Positions 55,037 through 60,215 of a DNA stretch of 64,000 nt are shown here, piece after piece; the first letter of the stretch is position 1; each line of letters begins with the position of its first letter. The position numbers and the translations under genes were made by a program. The stretch lies in contig JARGFK010000011.1 of the NCBI GenBank assembly GCA_029211065.1, positions 1 through 64,000 of the forward strand. The letters are read 5' to 3'. The stretch comes from Desulfobacterales bacterium. Its GTDB lineage: Bacteria; Desulfobacterota; Desulfobacteria; Desulfobacterales; JARGFK01. The notes under the pieces are model-generated. The model was not told where the DNA came from. It worked only from the letters and a program-made list of their open reading frames with translations, and did no database searches.

Positions 55037-56914
55037 TCAATAACTTCCTAAAATTTTCAAAAAATCGGTCCTTTCAATCAACCGGTTTAAAATCGGTTTA
55101 AATGTTTCCGCCTCCACATCCGCTTCCACATCGGCATAAAACATATACTCCCATGGCTTGCCGTGAATGGGCCGCGATTCCAGTTTTACCAGGTTGATGT
55201 TGTTTTCCGCAAAAATCTTCATTACCTCAAACAGCGATCCCGGATGGTGATCGGTGGAAAAAATAAGCGCTGATTTCCCACAGTCCCCTTTTTTAAGGGC
55301 CTGGGTCCCGACGATTACAAAGCGGGTATAGTTGCGGGGGTCGGTTTCAATCCCTTCCTCAACGACCGTCATTCCGTATATCTCGGCGGCCTCTTTACTG
55401 CCGATGGCGGCATCGCCGGGGGTGTGCACTTTGCTGATCGTCTTAACCGCGCTGGCGGTATCTTTGACCGGCACCAGCTCCCATCTGCCGTGGGATTCCA
55501 GAAACCGGCCACACTGTTGAAACGCCTGAGCCGGCGACAAAACCCGTTTAATGTCTCTAAGTTGGGTCCCCGGATGCGCGATGAGATGGTGAATAATGCG
55601 CAGGGTTAATTCCCCGATGATTCTCAAATCATATTCGAGTAGAAGGTCATAGTTGGCATGAATGCTTCCGGACAGGGAGTTTTCCAGGGGCACCACTCCG
55701 AAATTGACTTCATTGGTTTTGACAGCCTCAAAAATGGACCGAAAGGTCGGTTTGGATACGGCGGCAACCTTTGAGCCGAAATACTGGTTGCAGGCCCTGT
55801 GGCTGTAGGTCCCGGGTTCGCCCAGAAAAGCGGCCGAAGGTTTGCTTTTTCCGATATTTTGCTGCAAAAGACTGACGACCGTCGCCTTTTCCAGATAGCC
55901 GAAATCCAGCTGCTTGCCCACCACCGGCGCAATCACATAGATATCGCGCATCAGTTGTCCAAACTGTTTCGGATAAAGACTCTGGGCGCCGTCGGAAAGG
56001 GCCTTGTCCGGTTCATTGTGCACCTCGATAATCAGGGCGTCCGCGCCTGCGGCAACTGCCGCCCGGGCCATGGGGCTGACCTTTTCGCGGATGCCGGTGG
56101 CATGGCTCGGATCGATCATGACCGGCAGATGGGTCAACGCCTTTAAAACCGGAATGGCGGATAGATCCAGGGTGTTGCGGGTATAGGGTTCAAACGTGCG
56201 GATGCCTCTTTCGCATAGAATCACCTGGCCATTCCCCTCGGAAAGAATATATTCGGCCGACATCAGCCACTCTTCAATGGTTGACGACAACCCGCGCTTT
56301 AAGATAACCGGCTTGTTCATCTGCCCCACACATTTTAAAAGCTCGAAATTCTGCATGTTGCGCGCACCGATTTGCACGATGTCAACATATTTTAGCATGA
56401 GTTCCCCCTGGGCGGGGGAAGTCATTTCACTGGCCACCCGCAGACCGGTCGCATCCCGCACCTCCGCCAGAATTTTCAGCCCTTCTTCGCCCATGCCCTG
56501 AAAAGAATAGGGGGAAGATCTGGGTTTAAAAGCGCCGCCCCGGAATAGGACCGCGCCATATTTTTTGACCTCATGGGCAATCGCCAGGGCCTGCTCTCTG
56601 TTTTCGATGGCGCAGGGCCCGGCCGCCACGGCAATCCGTTCCCCGCCGATGGTCACATCGCCGACCTGTACATGGGTGTCTTCGGGATGCATCTGGCGGC
56701 TGACCAGTTTAAACGCGGTTGAAATGGGAATGACTTTTTCAATCCCCGGCAGTTTTTCAAAAATTTGAACGTCCTTGTTTTTACCTCCTACCGCCCCGAT
56801 AACATTCTGGCCGGCGCCGGCAATTTCCCGAACGATGCATCCTTGCCCGGAAAGCGTTGAGTGAATGATACTTTTTTCTTTTTCCGTAATTTCCTTTTTT
56901 AACACCAGCAGCAT
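55037..56914 (-). CDS. Bifunctional 3-deoxy-7-phosphoheptulonate (DAHP) synthase (type I-beta) / prephenate dehydratase with ACT domain
   Basis: The N-terminal about 340 aa belong to the KDO8P/DAHPS-I-beta family ('AAGPCAIE', 'KPRSSPYSFQG', 'MIDPSHA'). The C-terminal about 280 aa match a PDT domain ('AAFLGEPGTYSH', 'TRFVIV') plus ACT. Confidence 0.8.
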   Translation of the reverse strand: MLLVLKKEITEKEKSIIHSTLSGQGCIVREIAGAGQNVIGAVGGKNKDVQIFEKLPGIEKVIPISTAFKLVSRQMHPEDTHVQVGDVTIGGERIAVAAGPCAIENREQALAIAHEVKKYGAVLFRGGAFKPRSSPYSFQGMGEEGLKILAEVRDATGLRVASEMTSPAQGELMLKYVDIVQIGARNMQNFELLKCVGQMNKPVILKRGLSSTIEEWLMSAEYILSEGNGQVILCERGIRTFEPYTRNTLDLSAIPVLKALTHLPVMIDPSHATGIREKVSPMARAAVAAGADALIIEVHNEPDKALSDGAQSLYPKQFGQLMRDIYVIAPVVGKQLDFGYLEKATVVSLLQQNIGKSKPSAAFLGEPGTYSHRACNQYFGSKVAAVSKPTFRSIFEAVKTNEVNFGVVPLENSLSGSIHANYDLLLEYDLRIIGELTLRIIHHLIAHPGTQLRDIKRVLSPAQAFQQCGRFLESHGRWELVPVKDTASAVKTISKVHTPGDAAIGSKEAAEIYGMTVVEEGIETDPRNYTRFVIVGTQALKKGDCGKSALIFSTDHHPGSLFEVMKIFAENNINLVKLESRPIHGKPWEYMFYADVEADVEAETFKPILNRLIERTDFLKILGSY

Positions 56915-56975
56915 TTTAATTCCTCCTAATGAAATTGACTCACAAGCGCGTTATGGTCTATGACCCCATGGGCAA

Positions 56976-57050
56976 ATAAAAAACCCCGGGAGAATTCTCC
57001 CGGGGCTGAAAAAAACCCCGGGCAGACCGTTGCTGGGTCCACCCGGGGAG
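56976..57050 (-). terminator. Attenuator: two consecutive rho-independent terminator hairpins, each followed by a U-run, in the leader of the DAHP synthase / prephenate dehydratase gene
   Basis: The minus-strand RNA reads ccccgggtggacccagcaacggtctgcccgggg-UUUUUUU-cag-ccccgggagaauucucccgggg-UUUUUU. The stems are 7 bp and 9 bp. Confidence 0.6.
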
Positions 57051-57070
57051 TTTGTGCTATTATTTAAAGG

Positions 57071-57154
57071 CTAAACAACCGGATGGACGCTTCTAAAGCT
57101 AAAAAAGAAGCGTCTGAAAATAAAAAAAGTATGTCCGGTGGGGTTGTTTAACAT
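57071..57154 (-). CDS. Phe-rich attenuator leader peptide (pheL-like): MLNNPTGHTFFIFRRFFFSFRSVHPVV
   Basis: A 27-codon ORF carries 7 Phe codons within 11 residues. The RBS AGAGG lies 9 nt upstream of the ATG at 57154. An 8-bp pause hairpin (gacgcttc…gaagcgtc) sits inside the coding region. Confidence 0.6.
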   Translation of the reverse strand: MLNNPTGHTFFIFRRFFFSFRSVHPVV

Positions 57155-57179
57155 GGTATCTAACCTCTTGTTGAGGCGA

Positions 57180-57208
57180 TTTATAATGGGCCTTTCAGCT
57201 TTTGTCAA
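57180..57208 (-). promoter_or_regulatory. Near-consensus sigma70 promoter (TTGACA-N17-TATAAA) driving the Phe leader and the DAHP synthase / prephenate dehydratase gene
   Basis: On the minus strand, TTGACA corresponds to plus 57203-57208 and TATAAA to plus 57180-57185, with an exact 17-nt spacer. Confidence 0.55.
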
Positions 57209-57259
57209 GGACTGTTTTAATTCAATTTCCACCGCACCAGAGATTACCGCAAAAGAATA

Positions 57260-58186
57260 TTACTCCGCTCGCAGCAATCCATGATACGCATAAATATCAC
57301 TGACTGTCTTGGATGATAAAAACTGCAAAAAATCGCCCCCCCACCTGCCGCCGTCGCCAACGATGCCGGCGTGCGTCAGGCTGATAATATTTTCTGGGGC
57401 CGGTTGAGGATCCAACGTCGTACCGCCCAGAGGAATCATCTCAAACAGCGCCGGGAAAATCCGGATATACCGTAATGCCAGATGATAATAAACGATCGCA
57501 ACATCGGCGCGATCATCAGCCAGGGCCTGGGGTACCTCCCGGTGATGAATCCGTTCGCCGTAAACGATCCCTGTTCCGGCCGCATCAGTCAAAAATGACA
57601 ACTCAATCCCTTCTCCGGCAGCCATTCCTTTTAAGGTATCCACATATCCCCTGTAGCTCACCGTTTCAGTTTCCGGGTTTGATAAAAACAGGCGCAGATT
57701 TTGTTGTGCCAGATCCGCAACTCCTGAAATATTTTTCGGATTTCCTTTTTTGACCAATAAGACACTGCCGCGATTTCGCATAAACGGCTTGTGGGTCTGC
57801 ATATAACCTTCAGCAACCAGATTGTCGAGCACCTTCGGCGGGCTGATAAAGACATGGGGAGATACGCGGATGATCAGATTGCCCATTTGAAGAGCACCAG
57901 CCTTCAGCAGGTTCACAATAGGGCCTGGCGGGGTTGTAGCATAGAATATTCCGGACAACTCTTTATGCTGCTGTAAAAAAAGATCCAGGCATTCCCTAAG
58001 CGCCATGTGGTGATTTCCGTCAGAAAGTACCACCAGTTCCGCATTCGCTGGGTCCCCATGAAAGTCCAGGCAGATGTTTGAACCCGGTTGATTCCAGTGG
58101 AAACATTGTCTATTTTCGCCAGTATTCTCCTCTGGCCAGTCAAGATAGGCTGGTTCTTTCTCAGGGTTGTCAGTCTGCTGTATCAT
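57260..58186 (-). CDS. ModA/PBP2-like substrate-binding-fold protein with no obvious signal peptide, last gene of the tctCBA operon
   Basis: ModA-like blocks are present ('ELVVLSDGNHHMAL', 'PHVFISPP', 'VLLVKKGNPKNISGVADL', 'DVAIVYYHLA'). The N-terminus is hydrophilic. The tctA stop lies 5 nt upstream. Confidence 0.45.
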   Translation of the reverse strand: MIQQTDNPEKEPAYLDWPEENTGENRQCFHWNQPGSNICLDFHGDPANAELVVLSDGNHHMALRECLDLFLQQHKELSGIFYATTPPGPIVNLLKAGALQMGNLIIRVSPHVFISPPKVLDNLVAEGYMQTHKPFMRNRGSVLLVKKGNPKNISGVADLAQQNLRLFLSNPETETVSYRGYVDTLKGMAAGEGIELSFLTDAAGTGIVYGERIHHREVPQALADDRADVAIVYYHLALRYIRIFPALFEMIPLGGTTLDPQPAPENIISLTHAGIVGDGGRWGGDFLQFLSSKTVSDIYAYHGLLRAE

Positions 58187-58190
58187 ACCG

Positions 58191-59687
58191 TTATTTTTTT
58201 TTCATCGAAGTTTTAGCTGTCTTGAAAACGATATAACCCGTAACACACATTAAGATCATTGCCACTGGACGCTTGAAGAACATAAACGTATCAAGCTCCG
58301 ATGCAATAATGACCTGCTGAAGCGCAGTCTCCCAAATCGGCGTCAGAATAAAACCGATAATAAAACAGATGTGGGAATAATCATACTTTCTCATGAAATA
58401 TGCAAGAAATGCAAAAAACAGCATGAGCATGACATCAAAAACATTATACGCCCCCAGATAGGAGCCCATGATGCAGGTGAAGATGATTATGGGATAGAGG
58501 ATCGGCCGGGGTGTTTGTACCGCCTTACAAGAGGCCCTTAATCCCAGACGCCCGACAATCAGCAAAAAGATATTGGCAATGATTAGACTGCCGTATATGG
58601 AGTAGATGAATTGCGCATTCTGTTCAAACATCAAAGGCCCGGGGATCATGCCGTGTATGATGAACGCGCCGATGAGCAGGGCCGCGGCCACATTGCCCGG
58701 AATCCCCAGGGTGAACAATGGAATCAGGCTGGACGCACAGACCGCACTGTTGGCCGATTCCGAAGCGGCAATGCCCTCAAGGGCGCCCATACCAAATTTT
58801 TCAGGATGTTTTGATCTTTTCTTTGCCTGGTCGTAAGCGAAAAAGGAGGCCACCGGCGCGCCCAGACCGGGCATGGCGCCAACCGCGGTACCCGCTATGG
58901 CTGAACGCAGGAGTGTTTTGATATTACGGCGATACTCGGGCCAGGAAAGGAAGCGGTCTTCCGGTTTGTCGGAGAACGTGCAGGTGGCTTCGGAACCGTC
59001 GATATTATTATTGTAATGACTCTCCAATTGGATGATGATTTCAGCGAAAGCCAGCATCCCGATACCGATAGGAATCAGTGCGATGCCCCTTTCCAATTTA
59101 TAAAGCCCAAAGGTCAAACGCGGCAGTGCGGACACCGGTTCCATGCCGATGGTGCCTACAAAGATGCCGAGTGCAGCGGCGATAAGGCCCCGTGCAAGCG
59201 ATTTCGTTCCCAACCCGGCAATGATGGTCATGGCCATGCAGATCAAGGCAAAAATTTCCGGCGGTCCCATGTACAGGGCCACCGTCGCGAGAGGTGCGGC
59301 CACTAAAATCAGTACCCAGGTCGCAAAAAAATCCCCGGAAACCGACCCATAGAGTGCCATGCGCAAGGCTTTTTCGCCCTTACCTTGTAACGCCAGCGGG
59401 TAGCCGTCCCACGAGGTTGCCGCAGCTTCGGGTGTGCCCGGTGTATTGAGCAGTACGCCGGAGATGGCGCCCCCATAAAAAGCCCCCTTATTGAGGCCCA
59501 CCAGAAAGCCGATGGCCGACACGGGGGACATGTAGTACGATAGCGGTATGCACAGGGCAATGGCCATGGGCCCGTTAATGCCCGGAATCGCCCCTGCGAT
59601 CATGCCCGCCGTGACCCCCACCAGCACAAACAGCAAGTTTAAGGGGTGCAGTGAATCTATGAATCCTGCAATAATTAGTTCAAACAC
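58191..59687 (-). CDS. tctA: Tripartite tricarboxylate transporter large permease TctA
   Basis: The protein is a polytopic membrane protein of 498 aa. The N-terminus 'GAIPGINGPMAIALCIPL' is present. Confidence 0.85.
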   Translation of the reverse strand: MFELIIAGFIDSLHPLNLLFVLVGVTAGMIAGAIPGINGPMAIALCIPLSYYMSPVSAIGFLVGLNKGAFYGGAISGVLLNTPGTPEAAATSWDGYPLALQGKGEKALRMALYGSVSGDFFATWVLILVAAPLATVALYMGPPEIFALICMAMTIIAGLGTKSLARGLIAAALGIFVGTIGMEPVSALPRLTFGLYKLERGIALIPIGIGMLAFAEIIIQLESHYNNNIDGSEATCTFSDKPEDRFLSWPEYRRNIKTLLRSAIAGTAVGAMPGLGAPVASFFAYDQAKKRSKHPEKFGMGALEGIAASESANSAVCASSLIPLFTLGIPGNVAAALLIGAFIIHGMIPGPLMFEQNAQFIYSIYGSLIIANIFLLIVGRLGLRASCKAVQTPRPILYPIIIFTCIMGSYLGAYNVFDVMLMLFFAFLAYFMRKYDYSHICFIIGFILTPIWETALQQVIIASELDTFMFFKRPVAMILMCVTGYIVFKTAKTSMKKK

Positions 59688-59714
59688 ACCTGCTCCTATC
59701 GGATACGCTCCGGT

Positions 59715-60215
59715 TTACGGCATGGGGATACCGAGTCCATATCGCATGACCGCACACATAAAACCCACCGTAACAGCAGCTACTATCGCCATGGTAACTG
59801 GCCGGCGCTGACCGCAAAGGTATTGGATCAACAACATAAACACGAGCCCGGCCGGGATAAAACCGATCCAATTCATGGCGGGCATCAACAGGATGCAGGG
59901 GATCATGAAACAGACAAGACGCCACAAATACACCCTTTCTGCCAGGGGAATATCCCCTGATTGACCCGCTTTGGACTTTGTTGGTTTAGATTTAAAATGA
60001 GAAAAAAAATTAAGCCCCAGCGACAACAATGAAAGGGCCAATATGCTCCCGAAAGCCACATGGGGCAGAAGCGCAGAAGAGACACCATAACCCGGATATG
60101 GGGGTGTAAAGGTGGGAATGACCCATAGTAAAAAAACCAAACTCCCCAACGCGACACCTGCAGAGACGAGATTTTCTCTTTTCTTTCTCGTCATACCATC
60201 CTCACTCGAATTCAT
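59715..60215 (-). CDS. tctB: Tripartite tricarboxylate transporter small subunit TctB
   Basis: It is a small 4-TM protein between tctC and tctA. The start may be the internal Met at 60191. Confidence 0.6.
   Translation of the reverse strand: MNSSEDGMTRKKRENLVSAGVALGSLVFLLWVIPTFTPPYPGYGVSSALLPHVAFGSILALSLLSLGLNFFSHFKSKPTKSKAGQSGDIPLAERVYLWRLVCFMIPCILLMPAMNWIGFIPAGLVFMLLIQYLCGQRRPVTMAIVAAVTVGFMCAVMRYGLGIPMP

Follow-up and report, generated by a model that had tools for sequence, protein, structure and literature searches.

A probable phenylalanine-sensing leader-peptide attenuator upstream of a DAHP synthase/prephenate dehydratase fusion gene in Desulfobacterales

Introduction

The his attenuator of Salmonella and Escherichia coli alternates between a terminating state, in which the RNA segments pair as A:B, C:D and E:F, and a read-through state, in which B:C and D:E form instead. 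Other described elements that resemble the leader examined here in function or lineage include: (i) pheL-pheA of E. coli, an attenuator with a leader open reading frame (ORF) of phenylalanine (Phe) codons that senses charged tRNA-Phe (PMC3082878, PMC11802643), (ii) aroR-aroF of Corynebacterium glutamicum (Neshat et al. 2014), in which, as outlined in PMC11802643, a Phe-Tyr-Phe leader peptide controls a 3-deoxy-7-phosphoheptulonate (DAHP) synthase operon and responds to Phe limitation, (iii) a potential pheL of Desulfobacterium autotrophicum, to which Gurvich et al. 2011 devote one sentence (PMC3082878), and (iv) a conserved 190-270-nt RNA element of the Geobacteraceae (Gmet_R0069/GSUR082), which lies 5' of aroG-2, the gene of a Thermotoga-type DAHP synthase suspected to be Phe-related (PMC2700814). 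Literature searches on attenuators in Deltaproteobacteria and Desulfobacterota yielded nothing beyond the Gurvich sentence and the Geobacter element. The present analysis concerns a leader on the minus strand of contig JARGFK010000011.1 of a Desulfobacterales bacterium (assembly GCA_029211065.1), of which positions 1 to 64,000 were analysed as a whole and are termed the window. The leader, found immediately before a gene that fuses DAHP synthase to prephenate dehydratase, is very likely a ribosome-mediated leader-peptide transcription attenuator that senses charged tRNA-Phe and controls the fusion gene; this reading, already proposed in an initial annotation of the window, is supported by a conserved ORF, by mutually exclusive pairings that covary and by linkage to the Phe pathway.

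Comparison with described systems

Similarly to pheL-pheA, the Desulfobacterales leader combines a short ORF with seven Phe codons, a leader hairpin, a choice between antiterminator and terminator, and a downstream prephenate dehydratase. By contrast, it has no detectable sequence or structure homology to the E. coli element, its peptide spans 27 codons rather than 15, six RNA segments (R1 to R6) and two U-tract hairpins stand where E. coli has four segments and one terminator, DAHP synthase takes the place of the chorismate mutase of E. coli pheA, and the host belongs to the Desulfobacterales rather than the Gammaproteobacteria. An Rfam cmscan of positions 56500-57700, with permissive filters and E values up to 10, returned 15 weak matches, none of which reached its gathering score. 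Neither Phe_leader (RF01859) nor a T-box was among the matches up to this E value, and His_leader (RF00514) appeared only at chance level (17.0 bits against a gathering score of 49, E = 6.1). The top matches (anti-hemB, trpB motif and ncS037) were rejected, as they merely align the two GC hairpins. The leader thus lies outside the gammaproteobacterial pheL family, though it would work alike.

The likeness to the his attenuator is one of architecture alone, a six-segment relay in which R1:R2, R3:R4 and R5:R6 oppose R2:R3 and R4:R5. The amino acid sensed is different, and, unlike in the his attenuator, the middle hairpin R3:R4 usually carries a U tract of its own (59/69 sequences of the alignment described below), so that it may terminate by itself. 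For the regulated function, the closest precedent is aroR-aroF, likened here by its outline in the cited source, which places it in Actinomycetota with a shorter peptide of mixed codons. In the Desulfobacterales, a pure Phe run stands before the fusion gene, and mixed Phe/Tyr/Trp codons occur only in a paralogous copy before a putative aroQ.

The two deltaproteobacterial reports are closer in lineage. The putative pheL of D. autotrophicum comes from a member of the same taxonomic order, Desulfobacterales, and was recognised by a Phe-codon ORF and a terminator/antiterminator upstream of an annotated pheA; the report describes no family, structure, covariation or distribution (PMC3082878). It is very probably a member of the family to which the leader belongs. 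The initial annotation had considered an intact attenuator in a Desulfobacterota-type genome worth documenting, as such attenuation is characterised mainly in Gammaproteobacteria and a few other groups; a one-line mention was indeed all that existed, but the implied lack of any earlier report was slightly overstated in that Gurvich et al. 2011 precede it. The Geobacter element likewise stems from a former deltaproteobacterium and precedes a DAHP synthase, with no leader peptide mentioned (PMC2700814); compared by description, it might be analogous to the leader here and serves only as a lead.

The leader in the window

On the minus strand, an upstream binding-protein gene ends with its stop codon at 57260 and the 625-aa fusion gene begins with its ATG at 56914; the leader lies in the gap (Table 1). 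Its promoter, ribosome binding site and 27-codon ORF were read correctly in the initial annotation: a TTGACA-N17-TATAAA promoter (57208-57180) matches the consensus at 11/12 positions, AGAGG is present at 57168-57164, and seven of the 27 codons of the ORF (57154-57071) encode Phe. This density is unique in the window, where, among 549 ATG-initiated ORFs of 15-60 aa, only the leader ORF has at least five Phe within 11 residues (seven, with the runner-up at four). The 261-nt leader has a folding z-score of -5.6 relative to shuffled sequence. A covariance model built from the alignment of relatives (A1, 69 sequences) finds one copy in the window (56956-57124, 137.6 bits), its weaker matches being the reverse strands of the element's own palindromic hairpins. 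No second copy was detected in the window by a degenerate pattern with three mismatches or by an unfiltered covariance-model search.

Six RNA segments are predicted to form two exclusive states: R1:R2, R3:R4 and R5:R6 (terminating) or R2:R3 and R4:R5 (read-through). Within the ORF, GACGCUUCU (57114-57106) pairs with AGAAGCGUC (57094-57086); the internal hairpin of the initial annotation is therefore present, with 9 bp rather than the 8 bp given there. Overlapping its 3' arm is the antiterminator arm GUCCAUCCGG (57088-57079, leader codons 23-26), which can base-pair with CCGGGUGGAC in the 5' arm of terminator hairpin 1 (10 bp, -19.9 kcal/mol). Terminator 1 has a 13-bp stem (57048-57036 with 57028-57016), a 7-nt loop and a U7 tract (57015-57009). 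Terminator 2 pairs R5 (57005-56997) with R6 (56992-56984) across a 4-nt loop and ends in U6 (56983-56978). Both GC-rich hairpins are listed as terminator-like by a terminator scan and lie between the leader ORF and the structural gene, while the 3' arm of the first (CCCGGGG) can also pair with the 5' arm of the second (CCCCGGG) to form the R4:R5 helix (7-9 bp, -21.4 kcal/mol). The tandem terminators noted initially thus exist, with their U7 and U6 tracts, but are better read as parts of one six-segment relay than as two separate units.

In the proposed mechanism, transcription would start about 20 nt before the leader ORF. By default, with no ribosome on the leader or with a ribosome at its stop codon, R1:R2, R3:R4 with U7 and R5:R6 with U6 would form and transcription would stop. 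Under Phe limitation, a ribosome would stall on the Phe codons that overlap and follow R1, masking R1 and leaving R2 free; the GUCCAUCCGG part of R2 would pair with R3 as R3 emerges, R4 would then pair with R5, and, with neither terminator formed, the polymerase would read into the gene. When Phe is replete, the ribosome would reach the UAG, 5 nt past R2, and cover R2, such that R3:R4 and R5:R6 form. Translation of the leader ORF, stalling, kinetic trapping of the antiterminator and the response to Phe are all inferred.

Table 1. Coordinates of the leader, its regulated gene and the paired leader copies of related loci (window positions unless a locus is named)
Feature	Position	Strand	Basis or remark
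Leader promoter, -35 box TTGACA	57203..57208	-	Sequence reading; also kept in relatives
Leader promoter, -10 box TATAAA, 17 nt after the -35 box	57180..57185	-	Sequence reading; same spacing in relatives
Leader ORF Shine-Dalgarno, AGAGG	57164..57168	-	Sequence reading; 9 nt, then ATG
Leader ORF (pheL-like), 27 codons + TAG, MLNNPTGHTFFIFRRFFFSFRSVHPVV	57071..57154	-	ATG at 57154, TAG at 57073-57071
Phe-codon cluster, codons 10, 11, 13, 16, 17, 18 and 20	57095..57127	-	Only such small ORF in the window
R1 (GACGCUUCU), 5' arm of leader hairpin 1:2	57106..57114	-	R1:R2 duplex -13.3 kcal/mol; 97.7% paired
R2 (AGAAGCGUCCAUCCGG)	57079..57094	-	R1 pairs with the 5' part, R3 with the 3' part (GUCCAUCCGG; predicted antiterminator)
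R3 (CCCCGGGUGGACC), 5' arm of terminator hairpin 1	57036..57048	-	98.0% paired with R4
R4 (GGUCUGCCCGGGG) + U7, 3' arm and tail of terminator 1; alternative partner R5	57009..57028	-	Terminator scan
Terminator hairpin 2: R5 CCCCGGGAG, loop AAUU, R6 CUCCCGGGG, U6	56978..57005	-	Terminator scan; 98.0% paired
Structural gene Shine-Dalgarno, AGGAGG	56922..56927	-	Sequence reading
DAHP synthase/prephenate dehydratase fusion gene, 625 aa	55037..56914	-	Pfam and NCBIfam domain matches
Paired leader copies, L112	2539-2710 and 3380-3551		Both on the same strand
Paired leader copies, L174	3015-3186 and 3856-4027		Both on the same strand
Paired leader copies, L192	3221-3393 and 4062-4235		Both on the same strand

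Conservation in relatives

A scan of GTDB with one genome per species recovered 419 relatives of the fusion protein, of which the best 80 (65-88% identity), all from Desulfobacterales or related Thermodesulfobacteriota metagenome-assembled genomes (MAGs), were examined. By a strict motif, the leader ORF is found upstream of the orthologous gene in 68/80 loci, each with the core F-G-R-F-F-F-x-F-R-S-V-H-P followed by x-x-stop. Four further loci (L005, L016, L046 and L078) have variants of the motif, two (L042 and L048) have the leader 420-500 nt upstream, behind an insertion, and the upstream sequence of the remaining six is too short or masked by N. Conservation of the small ORF, which the initial annotation had named as a check on its reading, is thus seen in 68/68 analysable loci with the anchor motif, which keep the ORF, its length (median 27 codons), its start (ATG in 65/68) and the Phe run, with variants in the rest. 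The stop codon falls 2-3 codons past R2 in relatives, and the frame is never interrupted in the N-terminal half of the ORF, even though this half is divergent in sequence across the 68 loci.

The signals around the ORF are kept as well. An exact TTGACA is found in about 60/67 related loci, 95-116 nt before the conserved Arg codon and with variable flanks, and is followed at the same spacing by TAnnnn, often TATAAT, TATAAG or TATAAA. An AGGA/GAGG-type site stands 5-9 nt before the ATG in about two-thirds of relatives, by a simple AGGAGG-core criterion. U tracts follow hairpin 2 in 68/69 relatives and hairpin 1 (after R4) in 59/69, and, because of this difference, the universal logic is taken to be a six-segment relay that ends in hairpin 2. 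Going by sequence, hairpin 1 probably also terminates in most members, including the window copy.

Covariance-model matches of 93-175 bits occur in 94 of loci L001-L100, and full-length matches of about 72-175 bits in a similar number of L101-L200. Leader instances are present in about 100 metagenome contigs, and a pattern scan of such contigs gave at least 120 stretches, from which L097 was discarded as a chance pattern match that has no downstream structure.

Individual loci depart from the common form in several ways. In L027 (2768-2938), a single base inserted after the Phe run (…TTTTTTATGTTTTAG) truncates the leader ORF to 20 codons, such that it stops directly behind the Phe codons and ahead of R2, while the RNA segments are otherwise intact; the insertion may be a sequencing error or a natural variant whose terminating ribosome no longer covers R2. 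Between terminator and gene, 150-350 extra bases are found in L002, L007, L015, L021, L040, L042 and L048. In L090, L145 and L186, short imperfect repeats (…GAGCCGGTTTAGCCCGTTGAGCCGGTTTGGCCCG…) occur in runs that separate the attenuator from the first gene, at 170-500 nt past the leader anchor.

Covariation of the two pairing states

Pairing was scored as the percentage of alignment cells paired, relative to controls in which the partners were slid. In A1, 97.2% of cells are paired in the terminator state (slid controls at most 56.5%) and 99.1% in the antiterminator state (at most 63.0%), with compensatory changes in both alternative states. In a second alignment (A2), which consists of independent metagenomic instances and was fitted to the terminator structure only, the antiterminator state is paired in 96.6% of cells (at most 61.5%). 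The exchanges observed include CG/UG/UA at one pair of R1:R2, GC 37/AU 32 at one pair of R3:R4, and CG 50/UA 16 in R4:R5. The R2:R3 helix, 99.6% paired, varies at the third base of a His codon (UA 32/CG 20/UG 15). One R3 column alternates between G and A jointly with both its R4 partner (GC/AU) and its R2 partner (UA/CG/UG), a three-way covariation that is as predicted by alternative pairing. The mutually exclusive antiterminator and terminator pairings expected in the initial annotation exist, with R2:R3 and R4:R5 as the alternative helices, and they covary.

The spacer between R2 and R3 can, in many relatives, form a small hairpin that contains the leader stop codon (e.g., GUAACGCCUAAAGUUAC; A1 columns ~50-90, window 57040-57075), as seen by eye and in the nascent-RNA fold. 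Such a hairpin would be expected to shorten the loop closed by the antiterminator.

Selection on the Phe codons

The core Phe codons encode Phe in 67-69/69 A1 sequences. Three of these, located in the R1:R2 loop, which is unpaired, are Phe in 68-69/69, while the codon between the loop Phe codons varies freely (S/I/G/N/A/C). R2 also shows non-synonymous changes that leave its pairing intact (S to N/G, H to R/Q/C): S to N goes together with CGC to CGU in R1, and the H/R/Q/C changes follow R3. This pattern suggests that the Phe codons themselves, beyond RNA pairing, are under selection.

Codon choice in the core (window 57095-57109; A1 columns 16-31) is almost always UUC UUU UUU nnn UUU, with UUU in 67-69/69. 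For comparison, UUU makes up 65% of the Phe codons in the long ORFs of the window, and the three loop codons are unpaired in both states.

Energetics and ribosome geometry

Ribosome positions were modelled by masking a 27-nt footprint on nascent RNA truncated just past R3. With the A site on Phe codon 11, 13 or 18, R2:R3 is the minimum-energy structure. Without a ribosome, R1:R2 forms, and a ribosome at the stop codon covers R2; R2:R3 is absent in both cases. In these models, stalling would leave the antiterminator arm free, whereas a ribosome that has reached the stop codon would block this arm, which matches classical attenuation logic.

When the leader is folded without constraint, the leader Shine-Dalgarno region (57155-57173) pairs with bases just past the leader stop (57060-57072), and leader codons 2-4 pair with GGUUGUUUAG. 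The long-range helix, which lies in the poorly conserved N-terminal part, is probably specific to the window sequence; it is the competitor of R2:R3 in the footprint fold for codons 16-17 considered below.

Weighing the attenuator and its alternatives

Several observations weigh against an attenuator of this kind. The -10 hexamer TATAAA lacks the normally conserved final T, and a consensus promoter scan, which demands T at this position, does not list the promoter. About 20 relatives have no Shine-Dalgarno match by the simple AGGAGG-core criterion. The minimum-energy structure of the full-length leader is always the terminator state, even with a Phe-codon footprint masked (-47.3 kcal/mol for the terminators versus -31.0 for R2:R3 plus R4:R5 with R1 masked); read-through must therefore rely on co-transcriptional kinetic trapping, as in textbook attenuators. 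An equilibrium switch on the full-length leader is not claimed, as footprint masking never made the antiterminator the minimum. The geometry is also imperfect at certain codons: R2:R3 loses narrowly to a window-specific long-range pairing when the A site is on codons 16-17, and, by the footprint model, a ribosome stalled on Phe codon 20 would occlude the beginning of the antiterminator arm, whereas one stalled on codon 10 would leave R1 free. Finally, the near-total use of UUU, not UUC, in the loop Phe codons exceeds what coding alone requires.

The last of these points bears on an extension of the attenuator reading, in which the leader would be more than a codon counter, with a nascent-peptide or polymerase-pausing component, and the paralogous aromatic-codon copies would act on different shikimate-pathway genes of one genome and thereby form a regulon. 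Such a component could show in the near-invariant peptide core, the fixed 27-codon length and the near-exclusive loop UUU, yet the extension as a whole is considered unlikely.

The small ORF may instead encode a micro-protein or a nascent arrest peptide, with FFFxFRSVHP acting in the exit tunnel in the manner of TnaC or SecM, in place of or besides tRNA-Phe sensing. The structural proteins of these loci share only 65-88% identity, yet 13 peptide residues are strikingly conserved; there is also a Pro three codons ahead of the stop, and the invariant UUU usage is without explanation. However, the changes of AGC to AAC with CGC to CGU in R1, and of CAU/CAC/CGU in step with R3, are non-synonymous and keep the pairing, and thus point to selection at the RNA level rather than the peptide level. 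Free variation is seen in the last two residues and throughout the N-terminal half, and an arrest peptide is accordingly considered improbable.

Alternatively, the leader might be a structured RNA switch on which the ribosome does not act, such as a Phe-binding riboswitch, a T-box-like tRNA sensor or the target of an RNA-binding protein, with the small ORF a by-product of the conserved RNA. This proposal is very improbable: the ATG (65/68 loci), the constant 27 codons and a stop codon fixed relative to R2 speak against it, the frame stays open through the divergent N-terminal half, the unpaired loop holds invariant Phe codons around a freely varying one, and the variable part of the leader repeatedly gains additional Phe codons. 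No riboswitch or T-box is matched in Rfam, and the RNA consists of only three consecutive hairpins, with no pocket-like multi-helix junction. What the proposal does accommodate is that the conserved peptide (R-F...R-S-V-H-P) mostly coincides with the paired R1 and R2, a conservation that RNA constraint alone explains, that the Phe codons vary no more at their third positions than at the other two, and that several relatives have no obvious Shine-Dalgarno.

The idea that the hairpins are constitutive tandem terminators of the upstream transporter/binding-protein operon, beside a coincidental Phe-rich ORF, is rejected as scarcely credible, since, although the upstream gene (57260-58186) is on the same strand and the stretch from its stop codon to the hairpins contains no further terminator, a binding-protein gene is upstream in 0/56 related loci where the leader is present nonetheless, the leader stays with Phe-pathway genes of differing architecture and has its own conserved -35 box, and its Phe richness is unique among the 549 small ORFs of the window.

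Regulated gene and genomic neighbours

The gene downstream of the attenuator encodes a ferredoxin-like DAHP-synthase regulatory domain (DAHP_snth_FXD, PF18152), a DAHP synthase domain of type I-beta (DAHP_synth_1, PF00793), prephenate dehydratase (PDT, PF00800) and ACT (PF01842), and matches NF006421 and NF008865 of NCBIfam. These Pfam and NCBIfam domains bear out the DAHP synthase/prephenate dehydratase fusion of the initial annotation. At NCBI, the protein is MDF1590704.1 of a Desulfobacterales MAG and is named only '3-deoxy-7-phosphoheptulonate synthase'. Its DAHP synthase part leads straight into prephenate dehydratase and ACT, and no chorismate mutase domain is present.

Upstream on the same strand is a solute-binding protein gene (57260-58186, PF13531), which, with a TctA gene (PF01970) and a small membrane-protein ORF further upstream, makes up 57260-60215 (-). 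The terminator scan lists no terminator-like site between this operon and the leader, so transcripts from the upstream genes would also run into the attenuator. The binding-protein gene is found in 0/56 related loci with at least 1500 nt of upstream sequence, and the downstream neighbour of the window, a disulfide oxidoreductase gene, was not found beside the element in relatives. As both neighbours are absent beside the element in relatives, the leader belongs to the Phe-pathway gene and not to its surroundings.

Other gene arrangements and paralogous copies

Two arrangements follow the leader in the metagenome stretches: the fusion gene, or an operon of separate Phe-pathway genes, the latter in a more distant group. 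The operon of the distant lineage encodes an ACT-pair protein (PF19571, ~147 aa), a DAHP synthase that lacks the ferredoxin-like domain, and a protein that combines chorismate mutase, prephenate dehydratase and ACT, as exemplified by L096 (reverse strand of the locus), L090, L109, L145 and L186. The small ACT-pair protein, encoded by the first gene, could be a detached allosteric subunit of DAHP synthase.

Two full leader copies, about 840 nt apart on one strand, are found in L112, L174 and L192. The copy 1 peptide (...NWYFSFGRFYFSFRGVHPVL) includes the run W-Y-F-S-F-G-R-F-Y-F-S-F, in which a Tyr codon interrupts the Phe run and Trp/Tyr codons come ahead of it. An N-terminal motif suggests that the gene after copy 1 encodes a type II 3-dehydroquinase (aroQ), while copy 2 precedes the ACT-pair/DAHP synthase/pheA operon. 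Just upstream of the paired copies are ORFs that, by eye only, resemble chorismate synthase, an aminotransferase and a TyrA-like protein. The paired copies suggest a small attenuator regulon in which each leader's codons are matched to its step of the pathway.

Implications for Desulfobacterales

The leader represents a well-conserved, unannotated cis-regulatory RNA family of the Desulfobacterales, with well over 150 instances among the sequences examined, from well over a hundred related bacteria of sediments, and no Rfam entry. The family is mechanistically unsurprising and leaves the understanding of how attenuation works unchanged; its distinctive features are the his-like six segments, the usual presence of two terminators, an unusually constant 27-codon leader and the paralogous mixed-aromatic copies. 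The covariance model and the peptide motif can now be used by annotators to find the element. Classical attenuation, with both states supported by covariation, is extended to a lineage for which only a one-line mention existed, and to ecologically important, mostly uncultured sulfate reducers whose regulation is poorly known. The leader indicates that the fusion of DAHP synthase to prephenate dehydratase serves as a Phe-dedicated entry into the shikimate pathway, and, if the extended reading were true, the paralogous Phe/Tyr/Trp copies would form a leader-peptide regulon for aromatic biosynthesis in the Desulfobacterales.

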